Shown piece after piece: positions 8,320 through 39,016 of a stretch of DNA of 64,000 bases (position 1 is the stretch's first letter; each line of letters begins with the position of its first letter). Source of the stretch: Candidatus Versatilivorator sp. (GTDB lineage: Bacteria; Acidobacteriota; Terriglobia; Versatilivoradales; Versatilivoraceae); contig OZ242296.1 of assembly GCA_965207735.1 (NCBI GenBank), positions 1,376,001 to 1,440,000 on the forward strand. The letters run 5' to 3'. The notes beneath the pieces were generated by a model. That model was not told the origin of the DNA and searched no databases. It worked only from the letters and a program-made list of their open reading frames with translations. A program made the translations under genes and the position numbers.

Positions 8320-8396
8320 TGGCAGGCCAGGAGGGATTCGAACCCCCAACATCCGGTTTTGGAGACCGGCGCTCTACCAGTTCGAGCTACTGGCCT
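8320..8396 (-). tRNA. tRNA-Trp (CCA)
   Basis: AGGCCAG...CCGGT-CT-CCA-AA-ACCGG...GGTTCGAATCC...CTGGCCTGCCA. Confidence 0.97.
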
Positions 8397-9963: not shown

Positions 9964-10037
9964 AGCCCACGACCAGGCTTGAACTGGTGACCTCGTCCTT
10001 ACCAAGGACGCGCTCGTACCAACTGAGCTACGTGGGC
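9964..10037 (-). tRNA. tRNA-Thr (GGT), CCA not encoded
   Basis: GCCCACG acceptor stem, anticodon arm CGTCC-TT-GGT-AA-GGACG, T-loop TTCAAGC. Confidence 0.93.
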
Positions 10038-10044
10038 ATAACTC

Positions 10045-10119
10045 TGGAGCGGGAGACGGGGCTCGAACCCGCGACCAACAGCTTGGAAGGCTGTGACTCT
10101 ACCACTGAGTTACTCCCGC
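10045..10119 (-). tRNA. tRNA-Gly (TCC)
   Basis: GCGGGAG...CAGCC-TTCCAA-GCTG...GGTTCGAGCCC...CTCCCGCTCCA. Confidence 0.96.
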
Positions 10120-10144
10120 CTCGATCTCCGGCTAAATATATATG

Positions 10145-10233
10145 TGGTGGAGAGAGGAGGATTCGAACCTCCGTAGCTCGCAAGGAGCGGCAGATTTACA
10201 GTCTGCTGCCATTAACCACTCGGCCATCTCTCC
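10145..10233 (-). tRNA. tRNA-Tyr (GTA)
   Basis: GGAGAGA...GCAGA-CT-GTA-AA-TCTGC, long variable arm, TCTCTCCACCA. Confidence 0.96.
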
Positions 10234-10249
10234 CAACGAACTCAATCGC

Positions 10250-10325
10250 TGGAGCTGGCGAAGGGACTTGAACCCCCGACCCTCTGATTACAAATCAGAT
10301 GCTCTACCAACTGAGCTACGCCAGC
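10250..10325 (-). tRNA. tRNA-Thr (TGT)
   Basis: GCTGGCG...TCTGA-TT-TGT-AA-TCAGA...GGTTCAAGTCC...CGCCAGCTCCA. Confidence 0.96.
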
Positions 10326-19774: not shown

Positions 19775-20277
19775 ACAAACGACAAACGACAAAAGAAAAA
19801 GACTTATCCACGAAGGGGCACAAAGAACGACGAAGGGCCACCAAGGCGCTGGAGAAGGCTCAAGAGGGATGGGGCGAAGGTCGGCAAGGGGATCAAGGAA
19901 GGACACAAGGGACAAAGAGGATTTGTCCGCGAAGAAGCAACAAGGACTGCGGCGGAGCCAGTGGGGGGCGCTTCCGATCCCATCGTGATTTACAGGGATG
20001 ATTAACATCGATGCACAGGATTCACAGGATTCTTCAGGAAACGGCCAGCTTCTAATGCCGGGAATCCGCAAATCCGCACCGGATCATCGCCCGAGTTGGC
20101 TTCTGGTGCAGGAAGCTCTCGTCCTGTTAATCCTGTTAATCCTGTGCATTGATGTTCAATAGGTAGAAATCCATGCTAACCGAACAGGGTCCTTGTTCCC
20201 GACCGGCTGTGAAGATTCGTTGTTTCACTCTCGTATGATCCGCACGGCAGGGCGGGGGCTCGGCTTGCCTGAAACAA
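19765..20277 (+). repeat. Non-coding repeat cassette A, copy 1 (intron-free), bounded by a 14-bp imperfect direct repeat
   Basis: Shares the 5' block GACTTATCCACGAAGGGGCAC..AAGAACGACGAAGGG and a 39/40-nt 3' block with the intron-containing copy at 30202-32393. Confidence 0.8.
20002..20159. repeat. Palindromic ~160-bp MITE-like repeat (ACAGGAT type), copy 1
   Basis: Ends AACATCGATGCACAGGATTCACAGGAT / ATCCTGTTAATCCTGTGCATTGATGTT. Confidence 0.8.
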
Positions 20278-26997: not shown

Positions 26998-27114
26998 GCC
27001 TGTCTGAGAGCATTCACCCGCATTTCTCACGGGGACAGGACTCGCGAGCCAAGGCAAGTTCGTCTGAACTCTCCTTCAGCCCGAGCCGATCGCTGGGCAT
27101 CATTCCTGACAGGC
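26998..27114. mobile_element. Possible degenerate MITE
   Basis: GCCTGTC...GACAGGC inverted ends right after the Nramp stop codon; contains CCCGCATTTCTCAC (27017-27030), identical to the TIR core at 37801. Confidence 0.35.
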
Positions 27115-30179: not shown

Positions 30180-30341
30180 TGGAGTCTCTCCTTTTCTTGA
30201 GTTGTTTTAGACAAGTCCCGCCCCCGCCCTGCCGTGCGGATCATTCGAGAGTGAAACAATCAGAAATCGACAATCCTTTCGCGAACTTGGTATCCCGTCA
30301 CGGTTAACCTCAGCGCCTTAGTGTCCCTTCGTCGTTCTTCG

Positions 30342-32336
30342 GTAGAGTCGAGGGGAGGCGCGCCGGCCTTAGATCGAGGGAGTCGCTGTTGCCGGCGGCT
30401 TTCGCCACTCGCCGGTGCCTCAATCTCGTTCCTCGCTGCGTTTCCTCGCCCCCGCTCGTCAAACCGGACGTGCGGTTTTCCCGCATCCGGCTTTCAGTCA
30501 AGATCATGCCTTCGCCCTCGGAAGGCTCTGTGGCTTCGACCCCAGGCAAGTGAGTCCATAGGTTTTCCATAGTCTCTCGTCCGAGAAGCGCACACTCCCC
30601 CCGGTCCTCACCTTGTGCTTCCGACAGAGCCACTGACGCAGCCGCCCGCCCGCGTGGCGGTCGATCGCTCGGTAGGCCGGGCTCACCTGCCCCAGAACGA
30701 AGTAGTTCGCCCACCCGGTCATCGCCCGGTTCAGGTGTTCTACCATCTGTCCTCGAAGCAGCGTCCCGTTCCTCGGCGCCGTCCACTCGCTGATCTTGCG
30801 GCAGATGCTCTGGACGCTCGCCTGGCTGGGTCGTGTGCCGATGTAGGCTCCTTTCCCTTTGGGGCGATAGTTGCGTCCGATGCGATATCCCAGAAACCCC
30901 ATCGGTTCCTCCGGACACCGCAAGCATCGGGTCTTCCGCTCGTTGACCGGTAGCTTCAGCTCCTCCATGATCCGCTTGACCGCCGTCAGCATCTCTGCCG
31001 CCGGTGCCCTGCCGAGTACACGGAAGTCATCCGCATAGTTGACGATCTCCGCACAGAAGCGCCGGGCATATCCCAGCACCTTCCAGCCCAAAACGAAGCG
31101 CCGCATGTAGAGATTGCTGAGCAACGGTGAGATCGGGGCTCCTTGCGGTGTCCCCTTCCGCTCCCGGCGCCCTCGGTTCCGGCGGCGTCTGCCACCCTTC
31201 CCGTCGTCCTCCTCCACCGGCATCTCCAGCCATGCCTTGATGAGCTTGAGCATCCTCCCGTCACTCACGCGCCGGGCAATGCTTCGAATCAGCTCCGCAT
31301 GCGGAATCTCGCCGAAGTAGTTGGACAGGTCGCCGTCAACCACCTCCTGGTAACCCCTTTGCAGGAGTTCATGCACGCGTTTGACCGCGTCGTTGGCACT
31401 CCGCCCCCGCCGATAGCCATATTGCTCCGGTTGCAGGTCCGCTTCGAAGATCGGCTCCAACACCAGCAAAGCCGCCGTCTGCGCTACCCGGTCCCGTATG
31501 CAGGGTATGCCCAAAGGCCGGAACTTGCCGGGCTGTTTCTTCGGGATCAGCACCTGCCGCACCGGCTTCGGTACGTAGGTTCCTTCCCTCAGGTCCCGCG
31601 CCAGTTCCCCCAGCCAGCCCTCCACCCCATACGCCTCGATGTCCTTGAAGCCCTCCCCGTCCACCCCGGCCGACCCGCCGTTTCGGCGTACCTGTGCCCA
31701 GGCTTCCTTCAGAAAGTCCTCTCGCCACACCTTGTCCGACAGCGCATGAAACCGCCGCTTGGGGTCCTCCTTCGCTTTCGCATGTAGCATGGTCTGGAAT
31801 TTCCGAACCCCCTCTGACCCTGTTAGACTCTTGTCAGTGGCCACGCCTTGCCTCCTTTCCATGCTGCTCTCAACTCAGGGTCCCTTCCCTCCACCGGCGT
31901 TACCCGGCTTCTCCGGTACTACCGACCCATCCGCCACCCTGACGGCCCGGCCTGCCCCTCGCGGGGTCCCGGTTGATGTGTGCCGCATCTCCCCCAGGGC
32001 TTCCCGTGTTGCTGCCTTCTTCCCCTTCCATGCGTGCCAGCGTCACTACCCCGACGGAAGCGGATCGGTGCCCGCGTCGCTCTCTTCCCCATCCGCCAAC
32101 GGCCTTCCCCTAAAGACAGGAGGGTCGGCTTCCGTATTGTCCGTTTCGAGGCCTGCTCGACGTTCACTCGCGTTCCGGCCCGCATGCTCGCTGAGCCGCC
32201 CTTGGCGGCCCTTGACCCCAGAGTGCTTCAGACCATTTCGTTACCTCCATGATCCGCCCTGGCTGCTACCAACCGGAGCGACAGTTGTTGGGCGGGGTTC
32301 GCACCCGCCAGAAGAAGGCGCCTTTCCACGGCGCAC
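30342..32336 (-). mobile_element. Group II intron 1 (RT-encoding, 1995 nt; class E/F-like, class uncertain)
   Basis: 5' GUGCG; domain V GAGAGCCGGAUGCGGGAAAACCGCACGUCCGGUUU; 3' CGACUCUAC; RT ORF in domain IV. Confidence 0.93.
30504..31862 (-). CDS. ltrA: Group II intron reverse transcriptase/maturase (no endonuclease domain)
   Basis: SAGVDG, RPLGIP.IRDR, GTPQGAPISPLL, YADD, FLGY, GWANYF. Confidence 0.95.
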   Translation of the reverse strand: MERRQGVATDKSLTGSEGVRKFQTMLHAKAKEDPKRRFHALSDKVWREDFLKEAWAQVRRNGGSAGVDGEGFKDIEAYGVEGWLGELARDLREGTYVPKPVRQVLIPKKQPGKFRPLGIPCIRDRVAQTAALLVLEPIFEADLQPEQYGYRRGRSANDAVKRVHELLQRGYQEVVDGDLSNYFGEIPHAELIRSIARRVSDGRMLKLIKAWLEMPVEEDDGKGGRRRRNRGRRERKGTPQGAPISPLLSNLYMRRFVLGWKVLGYARRFCAEIVNYADDFRVLGRAPAAEMLTAVKRIMEELKLPVNERKTRCLRCPEEPMGFLGYRIGRNYRPKGKGAYIGTRPSQASVQSICRKISEWTAPRNGTLLRGQMVEHLNRAMTGWANYFVLGQVSPAYRAIDRHAGGRLRQWLCRKHKVRTGGSVRFSDERLWKTYGLTCLGSKPQSLPRAKA

Positions 32337-32384
32337 TGCCCCTTCGTGGATAAGTCTTTTGTCTTTTGTCTTTTGTCGGTTGTT

Positions 32385-32762
32385 TCAGGCAAGCCCACCG
32401 CTGACCGGATTCCCCGACGCCACCCACTCCTTGTAGCCTCCCGCCATGGAGAACACGTTTCGGTAACCCATTCGCTGCAAGGCGTCGGCGGACAGCGCCG
32501 ACCGGTACCCCCCGCCGCAATAGAGAACAATCTCGGCGTCAGGGTCGGGCACCAGCGCCTCGATATCCCTTTCGATGATTCCCTTCCCCAGGTGGACGGC
32601 GCCCTCCGCATGCCCGCGAGACCATTCATGATCCTCGCGGATATCGACGAAGTGAAGGGACTGCCCCTTTTTCAGCTTTTCCCGCACCGCAGTTACCGAA
32701 ACCTCTCGAATTCGGGACTTGGCATCGTCGACCACCCGCAAAAAAGCCGCTGAGTGCTGCAT
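32385..32762 (-). CDS. Rhodanese-like sulfurtransferase
   Basis: DIREDHEW..GH, VLYCGGGYRSA, SMAGGY; ATG at 32762 (MQHSAAF). Confidence 0.9.
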   Translation of the reverse strand: MQHSAAFLRVVDDAKSRIREVSVTAVREKLKKGQSLHFVDIREDHEWSRGHAEGAVHLGKGIIERDIEALVPDPDAEIVLYCGGGYRSALSADALQRMGYRNVFSMAGGYKEWVASGNPVSGGLA

Positions 32763-32850
32763 TCCCCTACTCCTCGATCCCGACCACCCCCGGTTGCCGG
32801 CAGTGGAAGCCTCCCTCAAAATCGGAACAGCGATCCGCCTTCATCGAAAC

Positions 32851-33738
32851 TTATCGCGACACTACCTCCAACCCCGCTTCCACCGAAGCGGAAGCCGGGG
32901 CAAGGCGTTGGAAATCAAACAGCCCGGCATCCATCAGGTGCGAAGGGATCACATGCTTGAGAGCGGCCAGCATGGAGTCCCCGACTCTGGGATTCTCCGC
33001 CTGCAGCCGGGCGATCAACTCCTTGACCTCCTGACGCTTGAGATCCGGCTGAGAGCCGCAGAGGTCGCAGGGAATGATGGGATAGCCCATGTGGGAGGCG
33101 AAGCGGGCCAGATCGACCTCGCGGCAAAAGGTCAGCGGCCGGATGACGGTGTTGCGACCATCGTCGCTTCTCAAAACGGGAGGCATGGACTTCAACACCC
33201 CCCCATAAAACAGGTTCAGAAGCAGTGTCTCCAGAATGTCGTCGGCGTGATGACCCAGGGCGATCTTGTTGCACTCCATCTCGACGGCGGCATTGTAGAG
33301 GATGCCCCGACGCAGGCGTGAACAGAGCGAGCAGGCGGTGCCACCCTCCGGAATGTGAGACTGAACGATGGAATAGGTGTCCTTGGCCAGAATGCGGTAC
33401 TCCTGTCCCAGGTGTTGTAGATATTCGGGCAGCACCTCGGCGGGAAACCCCGGCTGCCTCTGGTCCAGATTGACGGCCACCATCGAGAAGGTGACCGGAG
33501 CCCGCTTCCGCAGGTCTCTCAGCAGCGTCAACAGGGCGTAGCTGTCCTTGCCTCCGCTCAGGCAGACCATGATCCGATCGCCCTCCGAGATCATGGAAAA
33601 GTCGGCGATCGCCTGCCCCACCTTTCTCAGAAGCCGCCGCCTCAGGCGTGGCAGATCCCCGCTGGAGGGTCTGCAAGCGGACGGCCCGGGCGCCGCGCCC
33701 GCCGTCCTCTGCTTGGGAAGCGTGTCATAGAGTCTCAA
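32851..33738 (-). CDS. ttcA: tRNA 2-thiocytidine(32) synthetase
   Basis: SGGKDS PP-loop, [25 protein letters not shown]; start uncertain. Confidence 0.93.
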
Positions 33739-34822
33739 CCGTTTCCTCCAAGCGCACGTAGTCCGCCTTTCGCTTTACCGGCTGGAACCCTTCGGACAGG
33801 ATGGCCTCGCGCAAAATATCTTCCGTGGCCCGGTGGTGAGCGCCGGCCGGCGTGATCACGTTTTCCTCGATCATGATGCTGCCCATGTCGTTGGCTCCAT
33901 GATGGAGTCCCTGCCTTCCCACCTCGACGCCCTGGGTCAGCCAGGATACCTGGATGTTGGGGATGTTGGGCAGGCAAATTCTGGCGAGTGCCAACCAGCG
34001 CAGATACTCTTCGCTCGTCTCTCGATCGGGGACCTTGCGACTGATCTTGGTGTTGTCGGGCTGCAGCGTCCAGGGGATGAAGGCCACAAAGCCGCCCGTC
34101 CGCCGCTGCAGCTCGTAGATGCGCTCCAGGTGCCGGATGCGGTGCTCCGGAGTTTCACCCATCCCGAACATCATGGTGGCCGTGCTGGGCAATCCCAGGC
34201 CGTGGGCGACCTCCATGACCTCCAGCCACTCGGCGGTGTTGCACTTGTTGGTGTTCTTTCTCCTGACCTCATCCACCAGAATCTCGGCCCCGCCTCCCGG
34301 AATCGAGTCAAGCCCCGCTGCCTTCAGCCTGAGCAGAACTTCCCGGGTGTCCATTGCGAAGATCCGGGTAAAGGCGTGGATCTCCGGCGGAGAGAAGCAG
34401 TGGAGGTGGATTCGGTACCGCCGCTTCAGCTCGCTCAGGAGCCGCTCGTACCATTCCAGCGGAAGGTCGGGGTGGAGCCCGCCCTGCATGAGAATGCCGC
34501 TGCCGCCAAGCTCCAGGGTCTCCTCGACTTTTTCAAAAATCTGCTGGTGGCTCAGGACATAACCTTCGCTGGAGCCGGGCGGCCGGTAAAAGGCGCAAAA
34601 GGTGCAGACGGCCGAACAGATATTGCTGTAGTTGATGTTGCGGTCCACCACGTAGGTGACCACGTCGTCGGGATGAAGGCGGCGCCGGATGCGGTCGGCC
34701 GTCTCCTGCAATCGGGCCAGTGGAGCCCCCCTGGCCAGAAGGCCGTATGCCTGCGGACTCAGGTGCTCCTCCTCGGCACGGGTGAGGCAATCCTGCACGT
34801 TCATGGCCGCAAATGGGTCCAC
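33725..34822 (-). CDS. mqnC: Radical SAM protein of the CofH/MqnC family (cyclic dehypoxanthine futalosine synthase-like)
   Basis: [39 protein letters not shown]. Confidence 0.8.
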
Positions 34823-34830
34823 TTCCGCAG

Positions 34831-36690
34831 TTACCGTCCTTCCAGAGTGGCCGTGAAACTCATTTCCCTGCCGTCACGCACCACTGAAATCTCTACCTCA
34901 TCCCCCGGTCGATGCTCCTGCAGGAGGTAAGTCAGGTCGTATATGTTGGTGATCTTTTTCCCCGACCACCCCACGATGAGATCGCCGGACCGCAATCCGC
35001 ACTTGGACGCCGGACTTCCCTCTCGTACACCGGTAAGCCGGACCCCCTCGACCTCCTCGCCGTAGTCGGGAATAATCCCCAGCGTCACCCTGAATCCGGT
35101 TCTGCCCGATTCCCGGGGCTCACCGGCCGTTTTCCGGAAGGCAGGCCGCTGCTCCATCGAACGGATGGACCTGGCAGTCTGAAAGATGAACTCCACGACG
35201 CGGGCGATCGAATCCGGCTCAATCTTATCATAGTCATCACTGGGCTTATGGTAGTCCCCGTGGACCCCGGTGAAGAAAAAGAGCACCGGAATATCGCGGC
35301 CGTAGAACGAGGAATGATCGCTGGGGCCGAACCCTCCCTCGCGATATTTGAGCTCCAGGTCCGCATCCTCGTTCAGTTGAGTCAGCAGGTCCCTCCAGCC
35401 CGGCGAGCTGCCCGTACCGCCGACGATCAATCGCGTGCCTTGCATGCGCCCGATCATGTCCATGTTGATCATGGCCACGGTCTTCTCCAGGGGCACCACC
35501 GGATGGTTGACGTAATGCCGAGAACCCAGCAGGCCCTGCTCTTCGCCGCTGAAGGCCAGAAAGAGGACGCCGCGGCCCGGTTGATCCTTCCGGGATGCCA
35601 GCGTCCCGGCCAGCTCCAGCAGTCCGGCCGTGCCCGAGGCATTGTCGTCGGCGCCGTTGTGGACCTCACTCCCGGGCTTGGCTGCCAGCGAACTCACCTC
35701 ACCCATTCCGAGATGGTCGAAGTGAGCCCCGATTGCCAGGACCTCCTCGGCCAGGTCGCCTTTGCCTTTCAGAAACCCCACCACGTTCCGAGCTGAACGG
35801 GTCTCCTTGACCAGGTCCGCGCGGAATTTCAGGCGAACGCCCGGCATATCGGCGGCACTGCCCTTGCGGCTTCGGGCAGTCTCCTCCAGGTCATCCAGGT
35901 TCAAGCCGGCTTTGGCCAGGATCCGGCGGGCAGAGGGACGACTGATGGCCAGAGCGGCAATGCCCGAATCGGCGAAAGAGCGGTCGAATCTGAGCTTGGA
36001 GAGCGAACTCCCGGAAAAATCTTCCGAGTCGTTCACGAAGACAATGCCGGTGGCGCCCCGGTCCCGAGCCGTTTGGGCCTTATAGCGCAGGGCATGGTAG
36101 CGTCCGAATTGCCCGTGGGGATCGTCTCCCTCGGGGCCGTAGCGCAGGGCGAAGACGAATTTCCCCTTCACATCCCTATTCCGATAATCGTCGTACTGGA
36201 GCGACGGCGCGGAAATGCCGTATCCCACAAACTGTGCCGCGCCCTCGAACTGCCCGCTCAACGAGAAGGAAACCGGTGTGAAGTCGCTGCCCGGCTCCAG
36301 ATCTCTCCCTCCACCCTCCTGGCTTGAGGAGCCACCCTTCCCCCAGGCCACCTCCAGGGTATTGGCGGAACCCAACCGCACCCCGGAGACGAAGGAGAAT
36401 TCCTGAAAGTAGCTGCCTTCGTCACCCAACGGCAGCAGATTCCGCCGGGCGAACTGTTCCGCGATGTAGCGGGCCGCCTTCTCCGCCCCCGGGCTTCCGG
36501 CAAGCCGTCCTTCCAACTCGTCGGAGGCCAGATACCGGATGTGCGGCATCAGTCTTTCAGCCGAAACGGCCCCCGTGGCCGGTGCCGGAATGGTAGAACG
36601 GAAATGCCAATTGCCGATCGGCACCAGGGCGGCCGGCAGCAGTAGAGTGGCCCACAAGATCCAATTTTTTCGGTTCAATGCAATCCTCAT
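34831..36690 (-). CDS. M28 family peptidase with PA and PDZ domains
   Basis: [37 protein letters not shown]; C-terminal LGIIPD/SPA PDZ. Confidence 0.88.
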
Positions 36691-36765
36691 CGTCAATATC
36701 GCGGATCAATCTCACCGCCTAAGACGGCAGCCTGGAAATGCTCTTGGACGACCCTGAATCCAGGT

Positions 36766-37872
36766 TCAGTGGGAGGACCCGGCCCCCGCGACGGGGAGAA
36801 CAGACAGCATTTCCCAGCCTTTCTCCTCTCGAGGCACAAAATAGTAGGCCTGCACCTGGGGAAATCGCTTCAGATAGCTTCGGGCCTTTTCGGGCCCCAT
36901 CACAAAAAGCGCATTGTCCAGGGCATCGCCCTCCGTTCCGGACCCGGCCACCACGGCGACGCTGAGAAGACCCTGGACCGGGCGGCCTGTTCTGGGGTCC
37001 ATGATATGGGAATAGGTCACGCCCTCGCGGACGAACGAATTCTCATAGCTGCCGGAAATGGACAAGCACTGATTCTCCAGCGAGACGGTGAGAGCGCTCC
37101 TTTGGGGGTTGCGCGGAGAAACCGGGTCTCGAACCTTGACCTTCCAGGCGGTCTTCCCGGGCGGAGTTCCCAGCCCGAAGACCGTGCTGCTGCCAGCGCT
37201 GACCAGGGCGCTTTCGATTCGGTATTCTCTCAGCAGGCTCACCACCCGGTCCACCGCATACCCCTTGGCTATGCCTCCCAGGTCCAGAGCCATGCCCTCC
37301 CGAAGGAACCGGACGGTGCGACGGCCGGGATCGAGGCTCAGCTTGCGGTAACCCACCGTCTGAAGGGCGTTGCGAAGCTCCCTCTCCGGCGGCAGCCGAC
37401 CCGGGCCGCCGAAGAATCCCCAAGCCTTCATCAAGGGCTGAACGGTCACGTCGAAGGCGCCTTGGGACTGCCGGCTGAAGGCCAGGCATCGTTGCAGAAA
37501 GTCGAACAGCTCCGGCTCCACCAGGACCGCTTCCCGACCTGCTCGACGGTTGATGAAGGAGACAGAGCTGTTTCGCTTGTAGACGCTCATCAGGCGGTCG
37601 ATGCGATCCACCTCATCGAAGGCGCTCTCCGCCACCAGGGGCAGGTCGTCCCGGCCGGCTCCGTAGAGCTGAATCCCGTAGGTGGTGCCCATGGAGACAT
37701 GGCTGCCGCGGTAGTGGGCCACCGCCGGACCCGAACCGAGCGCACCGAGGCTGCAAAAAAGGGTCGGCGCCCCCACCAGGAACACCAGAATCGGCGCCAG
37801 CCCGCATTTCTCACCAGGCCGCTGGTGCCATGACGAAAAGTAGTTTATCTTCAGTACTTTGATTGGCTCCAT
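36766..37872 (-). CDS. apbE: FAD:protein FMN transferase, N-terminus interrupted by a MITE and intron (original start near 38931)
   Basis: SMGT, DLGGIAKGYAVD, SHIMDPRTG; upstream end of the open frame lies inside the MITE, with a candidate ATG at 37872. Confidence 0.85.
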   Translation of the reverse strand: MEPIKVLKINYFSSWHQRPGEKCGLAPILVFLVGAPTLFCSLGALGSGPAVAHYRGSHVSMGTTYGIQLYGAGRDDLPLVAESAFDEVDRIDRLMSVYKRNSSVSFINRRAGREAVLVEPELFDFLQRCLAFSRQSQGAFDVTVQPLMKAWGFFGGPGRLPPERELRNALQTVGYRKLSLDPGRRTVRFLREGMALDLGGIAKGYAVDRVVSLLREYRIESALVSAGSSTVFGLGTPPGKTAWKVKVRDPVSPRNPQRSALTVSLENQCLSISGSYENSFVREGVTYSHIMDPRTGRPVQGLLSVAVVAGSGTEGDALDNALFVMGPEKARSYLKRFPQVQAYYFVPREEKGWEMLSVLPVAGAGSSH

Positions 37873-38914
37873 GGTAAGGGCTTGTGGGTAACAGACGGCG
37901 CTGGGCATGCCCTGGCTTGTCTTTTTCCCTTCAGCGCGCACATGCTCCCTCGCACGTAGTGACCGCTACGCTCTTCGGTCGCGAGCACGCCCTGAAGGGA
38001 AAAATCCTGCGCCATGTTCATGCCCCCTGGGTAGAGTCGAGGACTGGCGCGTTGACTATAGGGTCCGGTGGCTATTCCGTCGCTTTCGCTTCGTGCCTCA
38101 GTCCGGCTCCCTTATCACGTTTCCAGTCCCCGCTCTCCGAACCGGACGTGCGGTTTTCCCGCATCTCGGCTCTCCAGTGGGATCATGCGTCTCGCACACA
38201 GGTCCCCGCTCGCATCCGTGGACGACTCCTATGGGATTGGCACCCGTCCCCCACTCCATCCACTTCCGCTCCCGGGTTGCCGCCAGGCCTGTTGATGCCC
38301 TGACGACGCCGTCCTCCTCCGACGACCCTTTCACTTTTGCATGTGATGCTTCCGGAGTCTCCGGCCCTTTTTTGGTCGGGGTTTCAGGCTTTCGCCACTC
38401 CCGGGACCCTTCCCCCTTCGGTCACCGCTCCTCACCTGAGGCCCCTTCCCTCCACCGGTATTACCCGGCTTCTCCGGTACTACAGGCCTCTCCGCCACCC
38501 TGTCGGCCTAGACTGACTCTCGCGAGCTTCCGGTTCGGTGCGTGCCTCACCACCCACAGGGCTTCCCATGTTGCTGCCTTCTTCCCCTTCCATGCGTGCC
38601 AGCGCCACTACCCCGGCGGGTCCAAAGGGGTGCCCGCGTCGCTCGCTTCCCCCTCCGTCTTCGGCCTTCCCCATTTCTCAGGTGGGTCGGCCCCCGCATT
38701 GCCCGTTTCGAGGCCTGCTCGACGTTCACTCGCGTTCCGGCCCGCATGCTCGCTGAACCGCCTTAAGCGGCCCTTTGACACCAGAGGGCTTCAGACCATA
38801 TCGTTACCTCCATGATCCGCCCTGGCTGCTACCAACCGGAGCGACAGTTGTTGGACGGGTTTCGCACCCGTTGGAAGAAGGCGCCTTTCCATGGCGCACT
38901 GAGAAATGCGGGCT
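37799..38914. mobile_element. MITE (247 bp without the intron) with 20-bp TIRs AGCCCGCATTTCTCACCAGG; right TIR split by intron 2
   Basis: Left TIR at 37799-37818; right TIR = 38026-38030 plus 38900-38914; internal inverted repeat TTTTTCCCTTCAG / CTGAAGGGAAAAA. Confidence 0.85.
38031..38899 (-). mobile_element. Group II intron 2 (ORF-less, 869 nt)
   Basis: 5' GUGCGCC; domains I-III highly similar to intron 1; domain V GAGAGCCGAGAUGCGGGAAAACCGCACGUCCGGUUC; 3' CGACUCUAC; short domain IV with no RT. Confidence 0.9.
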
Positions 38915-39016
38915 AGCCACCGCATCGCCATCGCAGGATACTCTGTTCGCAAATCGATAGGGAGTTGGACCACTAAACGGGAGGGATAGGTCGGTGCGGT
39001 CGGCACCAGGAGTCGG

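Follow-up and report, generated by a model that had tools for sequence, protein, structure and literature searches.

The 64,000-nucleotide stretch of DNA analysed here (the window; positions 1,376,001 to 1,440,000 of contig OZ242296.1 of Candidatus Versatilivorator sp., assembly GCA_965207735.1) harbours two group II introns on its minus strand, both starting with GUGCG and ending with CUCUAC. Intron 1 (30342-32336, 1995 nt) codes for a reverse transcriptase (RT), belongs to guide family A as defined below and is identical to eight other copies in the same genome (G000; G004, G005, G008 and G011 denote genomes of relatives). Intron 2 (38031-38899, 869 nt) lacks an open reading frame (ORF) and is among the 28 ORF-less copies of family B; its short domain IV can be aligned, if loosely, with the start of the ORF. 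Both introns were matched above the gathering score by the Rfam models RF02003 for domain I (32168-32310 and 38730-38873) and RF00029 for domains V and VI (30342-30495 and 38031-38174). The hallmarks of group II introns are seen in both according to Rfam and to folds of the 3′ ends, namely a GUGYG start, an AY end with a bulged A and the AGC triad of domain V. In intron 1, domain V with the triad and a 5-nt GAAAA loop occupies 30462-30492, and a long domain VI then runs to 30342. The folding energy of the whole of domain I gave no support for intron 1 (z 0.67) and a z of -2.5 for intron 2. Exon-binding site 1 (EBS1), located in the loop of subdomain ID3, reads UGUCUUU in intron 1 (32112-32118, minus strand) and UGAGAAA in intron 2 (38674-38680, minus strand). 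The former pairs with AGGGGCA of its 5′ exon by use of three G-U pairs, the latter perfectly with UUUCUCA; C is the first base of the 3′ exon in either case, and the loop is closed by a U-A pair in intron 1 and by an A-U pair in intron 2. The intron limits, the RT gene, the guide positions, the pairings, the C at exon +1 and the exchanged closing pair had all been proposed in a first, sequence-only reading of this DNA and are confirmed by Rfam, the model TIGR04416 and a check of the sequence.

The same reading had described domain I of the two introns as near-identical except for one hairpin loop, with a run of about 50 identical nt. The run was found, with a length of 54 nt, but 39 of 324 columns of domain I differ (88% identity), and the last 160 nt of the two intron types are only 71% identical. 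The two introns had further been regarded as a pair. We reject a meaning of this arrangement: the genes between them are housekeeping genes, and a gap as short as the observed one occurred in 93% of 5,000 random placements of the 45 copies of the genome, so the spacing is as expected by chance.

The RT/maturase of intron 1 (30504-31862, minus strand) comprises 452 amino acids with a YADD motif and scored 328.7 bits with TIGR04416 (cut-off 300). Pfam assigned RVT_1 and GIIM to it and no endonuclease domain. A search of the PDB returned general group II RTs only, and the best RTs on plasmids among the matches listed were about 55% identical. With 48% identity the window RT resembles a 440-residue RT of R. 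tropici CIAT 899, a probable g3 RT; PMC4244168 lists a g3 RT of 442 residues for this strain, a link made by organism and length and not by accession. According to PMC3753933, IIE/IIF introns have alpha-prime located in the loop of a hairpin, a domain V with a loop of 5 nt, a domain VI of great length and an RT that lacks an endonuclease. The introns of the window share all of these features (see also the class literature PMC3552965), with alpha-prime as GUCGCU/AGCGAC at the tip of a stem-loop (IIE/IIF corresponding to g3/F). By its RNA and RT features and the 48% RT identity, we tentatively assign the family as IIE/IIF-like, perhaps g3. G004 has 18 equal-scoring copies of another RT that is only distantly related (34% identity, open frame of 526 aa), for example at C1:2586280-2587506.

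A BLAST search of the genome with the 5′ 420 nt yielded 45 intron copies which fall into three guide families. Family A (UGUCUUU) has 13 members, all with the ORF, of which 12 are intact and nine identical. Family B (UGAGAAA) has 29 members, 28 of them ORF-less (868-870 nt, 22 identical) and one with an intact RT of its own (452 aa, at G000:5004992). The three members of family C (UGUAAUU) are an RT-coding intron with an altered C-terminus, an ORF-less intron and a remnant of 117 nt. The A, B and C RTs are 83-91% identical to each other (A versus C 91%, A versus B 83.4%); the remaining RT matches of the genome are weaker and lie outside the 45-copy family. The 5′ region of the intron was present in all 13 same-genus genomes searched, and 12 EBS1 variants were found among the same-genus copies read. 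The closest relatives are Terriglobia or Ca. Versatilivoraceae records, followed by Alphaproteobacteria and others at about 75%.

Each family has its own target. Intron 1 interrupts an intergenic cassette on the minus strand, the 5′ half of which (32337-32396) carries the motif TATCCACGAAGRRRCA at 32337-32352 with intron-binding site 1 (IBS1) at 32337-32343 and the 3′ half of which covers 30210-30341; both outer limits are approximate. The motif has 263 matches in the genome; nine A copies match it and a tenth resides in a variant. Intron 2 is held by a miniature inverted-repeat transposable element (MITE) of the IS1380 family (37797-38916, no strand assigned, 251 bp without the intron). One terminal repeat of this MITE is empty (37801-37813, plus strand), and the other is split by the intron (38900-38912, minus strand, continuing at 38030). 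Family B inserts 13 nt inside a terminal repeat that is common to the IS1380 insertion sequence (IS) and the MITE of about 250 bp, and all 29 copies are located there: 19 in MITE ends, seven in IS ends and three in others. The terminal 13-mer occurs 157 times exactly (0.14 expected) and at 169 sites if two wobble positions are allowed, of which 29 are occupied. The IS1380 transposase (NF033539, 410.6 bits, cut-off 180; PF13701) lies between inverted repeats shared with the MITE, and about 21 full copies of the element were counted. The three C copies all interrupt, at its centre, a palindrome that belongs to a repeat of 20 copies. For 38 of the 45 introns, the 16 bases 5′ of the insertion site are present at least five times in the genome, as they are for 1,510 of 20,000 random positions; occupied copies count toward this repeat number, and empty sites outnumber occupied ones in every family.

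Two leads on the A cassette were dropped. Its TTATCCAC is a motif of the repeat and not a DnaA box, because only 8 true TTATCCACA boxes face 185 copies of TTATCCACG. Genes of the GxxExxY type, considered as possible partners of the cassette, have only three fragmentary matches in the genome.

Taken together, the 45 copies most probably represent an endonuclease-lacking, IIE/IIF-like intron family that retrohomes site-specifically into three kinds of non-coding high-copy repeats by RNA-DNA pairing and in which guide-bearing 5′ halves have been exchanged between intron bodies; we hold this view with high confidence. By analogy to known group II introns, the spliced RNA with its bound RT would reverse-splice into the single-stranded template of the lagging strand, with EBS1 pairing to exon positions -1 to -6 or -7, a bulged EBS2 to about -11 to -14 and EBS3, a G, to +1. 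The nascent lagging strand would then prime reverse transcription. An RT for the ORF-less copies would be supplied in trans by one or other of the three RT types. Repeats would offer many harmless and renewable sites, and the terminal repeats of an IS would always supply one end in the favoured orientation.

To assess the pairing of guide and exon, 134 distinct insertions in G000 and its relatives were used in which ID3 could be read; loci with an unreadable start or loop were excluded. The 23 EBS1 types, unrelated loops among them, pair at a mean of 5.33 of 6 positions with their own exon and at 2.55 ± 0.24 after shuffling; the observed mean was reached by none of 20,000 shuffles, in a test which overstates the significance because the covarying sequences are related. 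Watson-Crick pairs are formed at exon position -1 by 23 of 23 guides and at -2 and -4 by 22 of 23. The closing pair of the loop is U-A in 13, G-C in six, A-U in three, G-U in one and mismatched in one of 24 distinct 12-nt ID3 inserts. The bulge that follows CCUCG covaries with exon positions -14 to -11 (z 6.9, 21 bulge types), the top five windows of a register scan lying on one diagonal, and is likely to be EBS2. In intron 1 this bulge (32136-32146, minus strand) has the core GGA, which would pair with TCC at -14 to -12; in intron 2 (38698-38708, minus strand) it reads CGGGC and would pair with GCCCG at -14 to -10. Another candidate, UGCGGG/UACGGA just 5′ of ID3, the B form of which matches CCCGCA at -13 to -8, is rejected as EBS2, since in folds it has a partner within the intron, with compensatory changes between the forms, and its A form does not match the exon. 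The candidate EBS3 of intron 1, assigned by position, is the G at 32107 (minus strand), which would pair with the C at exon +1. This placement follows the IIB structure. The G is invariant, and exon +1 is C in 76 of 100 and T in 19 of 100 cases, which would be compatible with such a pairing.

The orientation of the insertions was evaluated with a replication model in which dnaA (3.54 Mb) marks the origin and the maximum of the skew (0.73 Mb) the terminus; the single minimum of the GC skew (4.51 Mb) was rejected as origin in favour of dnaA. Thirty-eight of 45 introns are oriented for the lagging-strand template (p 3e-6), or 40 if a segment with reversed skew is flipped, and three origin models all gave 37 to 40. 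Since insertions favour the lagging-strand template, the strand bias indicates that the copies probably arose by independent retrohoming. In the reversed segment (3.98-4.51 Mb), the GC skew opposes the replichore, which suggests a recent inversion or a misassembly, and the two introns located there follow the local skew.

The two intron ends yield disagreeing phylogenetic trees for 31 distinct introns of full length from the genus, 18 of them ORF-less and 13 RT-coding. A tree of the first 400 nt, from which the EBS1 loop was removed, groups by guide family, with B on one side (support 100/99), and rejects a clade of ORF-less introns (P value of the approximately unbiased test, p-AU, 1.4e-95). 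The tree of the last 160 nt groups by body; here the ORF-less introns form one clade (100/100), and the data speak against B as a clade (rejected with a p-AU of 4.1e-42). Well-supported branches force at least three changes of body on the 5′ tree. Two 3′ bodies, RT-coding and ORF-less, are thus combined with several 5′ modules, and one ORF-less body carries A, B and C guides. An example is copy c8, the domain I of which is 98.5% like a C-type RT intron and the 3′ end of which is 98.1% like ORF-less B, with the switch point between alignment columns 400 and 413. The domain IV remnants of all ORF-less introns are 88.6-100% identical to the B type whatever the guide, so the ORF was deleted once. 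The incongruence of the 5′ and 3′ trees makes it likely that RT-coding and ORF-less introns have recombined and thereby exchanged their guide-bearing 5′ halves. Template switching of the RT, gene conversion or homologous recombination could be responsible. The 117-nt remnant (copy c30, G000:4260992-4261108), located in the C palindrome, consists of 84 nt of an A/C-type 5′ end and 33 nt of an ORF-less 3′ end and probably arose by internal deletion from an ORF-less mosaic with a C guide.

The idea of the sequence-only reading that a single intron lineage has diversified its EBS1 and homes into different high-copy repeats is hence supported by the covariation of loop and exon and by the enrichment of repeats at the insertion sites. 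It had counted two guides on one scaffold, where we find three families, 12 EBS1 variants and two bodies, and it had considered the loop as the only determinant, whereas EBS2 covaries with the target as well. Its proposal that ORF-less variants are mobilised by a shared RT stands in part: the ORF-less copies are mobile as judged from the 22 identical copies of 28 and the bias for the lagging-strand template, but a shared RT does not follow, as family B has its own intact RT.

A tentative extension, which we rate at somewhat below even, is that retargeting proceeds by recombination plus point mutation, that bodies repeatedly trade their guide modules (domains I and II) near the junction of domains II and III and that any RT of the family may drive any carrier. 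If true, the family would be a natural mix-and-match set of targetrons that follows whichever repeat is abundant. A rival assumption, doubtful in our view though of some weight, is that the ORF-less B copies of this genome were moved solely by the cognate RT of the B-guide intron at G000:5004992, not by the A RT of the window, and that no shared driver exists. The intact B RT, with its limited identity to the A RT, and the domain I of its intron, 95% like that of the ORF-less B copies, would fit this assumption, and in Thermosynechococcus elongatus two intron-encoded proteins (IEPs) of 87% identity differ sharply in specificity (PMC2882425). The single copy of the B RT gene, however, stands against 12 intact A RT genes, and the ORF-less body occurs in combination with the guides of all three families. 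In G000, the question of the driver RT is confounded by the cognate B RT. In G011, all nine intact RT genes belong to introns with a D guide (three read directly, six sharing the domain I score of a read D copy), whereas the guide was B in all nine ORF-less copies in which it was read, among 11 full ones. The situation in G011 favours mobilisation across guides, as far as gene content can indicate it.

It appears unlikely that the RT or a DNA structure selects the repeat and that the RNA loops, being no real targeting guide, adapted later to allow splicing. EBS1 can indeed not explain the choice of site alone, because EBS1 and EBS3 together fit 21,790 sites for family A (1,676 for B). The perfect match to guide A, AAAGACA, is present at 553 sites and common just upstream in the same cassette and is used by none of the 13 A copies. 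A and B targets moreover share T-16 and A-15, and favourable ends beside IS1182 are occupied by a B intron in 7 of 8 cases, the remaining favourable ends in 18 of 67 (p 0.0015 in a post hoc Fisher test). Against a role of the RT or of DNA structure alone, the combination of EBS1, the EBS2 core, EBS3 and TA reduces the candidates to 152 (A) and 121 (B), and EBS2, which is dispensable for splicing of IIE/IIF introns in vitro (PMC3753933), nevertheless covaries with the target. The A and C RTs, in spite of their 91% identity, go with unrelated targets.

The targets are mobile elements, and a long upstream flank is identical in seven B copies, as if introns had multiplied passively with a duplicated MITE, IS or cassette. 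Each IS or MITE has one end per orientation and thereby provides an internal control: 25 of 29 occupied B ends are in the favoured orientation and only 50 of 140 empty ones (p 6e-7); for family A the values are 11 of 13 and 116 of 254 (p 0.008). Passive duplication is disfavoured because the occupied ends are strand-biased and the empty ends are not. B copies are furthermore distributed over four types of ends (MITE left 12, MITE right 7, IS left 3, IS right 4), the intron splits the terminal repeat, and the seven copies with the shared flank, which is an IS1182 end, have three different downstream ends. The strand and end-type data largely refute passive spread, to which we give very little credit. 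That the mosaic introns, c8 and c39 as well as the copies at G000:1135573, 4261108 and 5004992 included, are assembly artefacts, which metagenome-assembled genomes with many near-identical repeats might produce, is hardly credible, since mosaics recur in G000, G004, G005 and G008, carry private differences from both parents (as in c8), form a clade of their own in the case of three G004 copies and have a counterpart in the short copy c30.

Several observations weigh against the proposed retrohoming and guide exchange or restrict them, in addition to the relatedness of the sequences in the shuffle test. With the simple model, the disfavoured strand contains seven of 45 copies, and the positions of origin and terminus rest on dnaA and a GC skew with one reversed segment. 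EBS2 pairing is short, with only 3 bp in family A in a register shifted by one, and for three of the 13 A copies the surroundings are not an intact cassette. In G011, an RT gene with a B guide, though truncated, may have moved the ORF-less copies earlier. Four metatranscriptome runs, available as contigs and from relatives, cover introns, but their joined form equals the empty repeat; a lariat joint was not present among the contig matches listed.

Guide-diversified intron families are an established phenomenon, and in this respect the concept of the sequence-only reading is confirmatory. In T. elongatus it was demonstrated experimentally by Mohr, Ghanem and Lambowitz (2010; PMC2882425), who described 28 TeI3/TeI4 introns in six EBS families and the mobilisation of ORF-less copies in trans by driver IEPs and drew the parallel to targetrons. 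Both there and here, one lineage has EBS families with different targets, the ORF-less copies outnumber the RT-coding ones and appear to be actively mobile descendants of one deletion; one family in T. elongatus uses a fixed IS200 site, which resembles the targeting of IS ends described above. The T. elongatus lineage is CL/IIB1, thermophilic and equipped with an endonuclease, in contrast to the endonuclease-lacking IIE/IIF-like family of this study. Each EBS family forms a clade in T. elongatus, and the families with an ORF (F1-F2) do not overlap with those without one (F3-F6), whereas here the same guides occur with either body and the trees of the 5′ and 3′ ends contradict each other. A further difference is that all three families of the present genome aim at high-copy repeats.

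RmInt2 of Sinorhizobium meliloti homes into the inverted repeats of ISRm17, by which the number of targets is doubled and one site on the lagging template is guaranteed (PMC4615759). RmInt2 and RmInt1 share with the present introns the lack of an endonuclease, terminal repeats of IS elements as targets, head-to-tail copies and the bias for the lagging template; IBS2 of RmInt2 at -14 to -10 is near the position found here, and a partial cross-complementation between the related IEPs is reported. RmInt2 is, however, a class D intron in a different IS, and the accessible part of PMC4615759 describes neither an ORF-less family nor an exchange of guides. The family of this study works like the T. 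elongatus and RmInt2 systems and is a member of neither lineage. In Hamiltonella, two subgroups of c-Ha.de.I1 proliferated independently, one of them in IS elements, and were connected by a gene conversion of about 700 bp (Leclercq and Cordaux 2012; PMC3522654), which is presented there, as far as accessible, as a single event without a link to guide exchange or ORF-less bodies. Further literature on group II introns is found in PMC4424553, PMC8643678, PMC2504315, PMC8919778 and PMC12584367. An exchange of guide modules with ORF-less bodies was not found in the literature searched, a search beyond the reach of which most subscription papers lie, and no paper on targeting of IS1380 by a group II intron was recognised from titles and the beginnings of abstracts.

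What is new is therefore likely the movement of guide modules between RT-coding and ORF-less introns as a further route of retargeting. The 134 insertions with their 23 guides provide natural rules of target recognition, the position of EBS2 included, for a little-studied IIE/IIF-like class, the in vivo targeting rules of which are not described in the accessible parts of PMC3753933 and PMC3552965. An intron of 869 nt that was, to judge from its copies, recently mobile and naturally retargeted is also a candidate where a scaffold is sought for targeting genes of GC-rich bacteria.

Some observations concern the surroundings of the introns and their relatives. IS1380 inserts into the A cassette at its CTAA (G000:2736423, 3001650, 4362192 and 5248563), so that the A and B target repeats are nested, and one such IS end holds a B intron. 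The window also contains an empty A cassette (19805-19820) and a solo IS1380 terminal 13-mer (27017-27029), both on the plus strand and in the disfavoured orientation. IS1182, an element with about 13 copies (NF033551), adjoins a terminal repeat of the IS1380 type in 10 places (for example G000:838600-840270, L168; L169); these ends could be a hotspot owing to distal sequence or to transcription driven by IS1182. The MITE end at G000:572757 (L005) has GTGC instead of the CCAG of its family exactly at the site of intron insertion and looks like a scar of imprecise intron loss, possibly via GCC microhomology.

Alphaproteobacterial introns (L087-L089 and L094), the RTs of which are about 76% identical, likewise have UGAGAAA as their guide and sit in sites that resemble the same IS1380 end, which suggests that guide and target may have moved together across phyla. 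The guides D (UGUUAAU) and E (UGAAUUU) occur in relatives (L011, L013, L020, L039 and others) after YTAR-preceded motifs resembling other IS terminal repeats, and head-to-tail tandem copies of the intron are present in relatives, too (L046/L143, L110). Apart from the introns and their targets, the window contains five tRNA genes on the minus strand, at 8323-8396 and 9964-10325.

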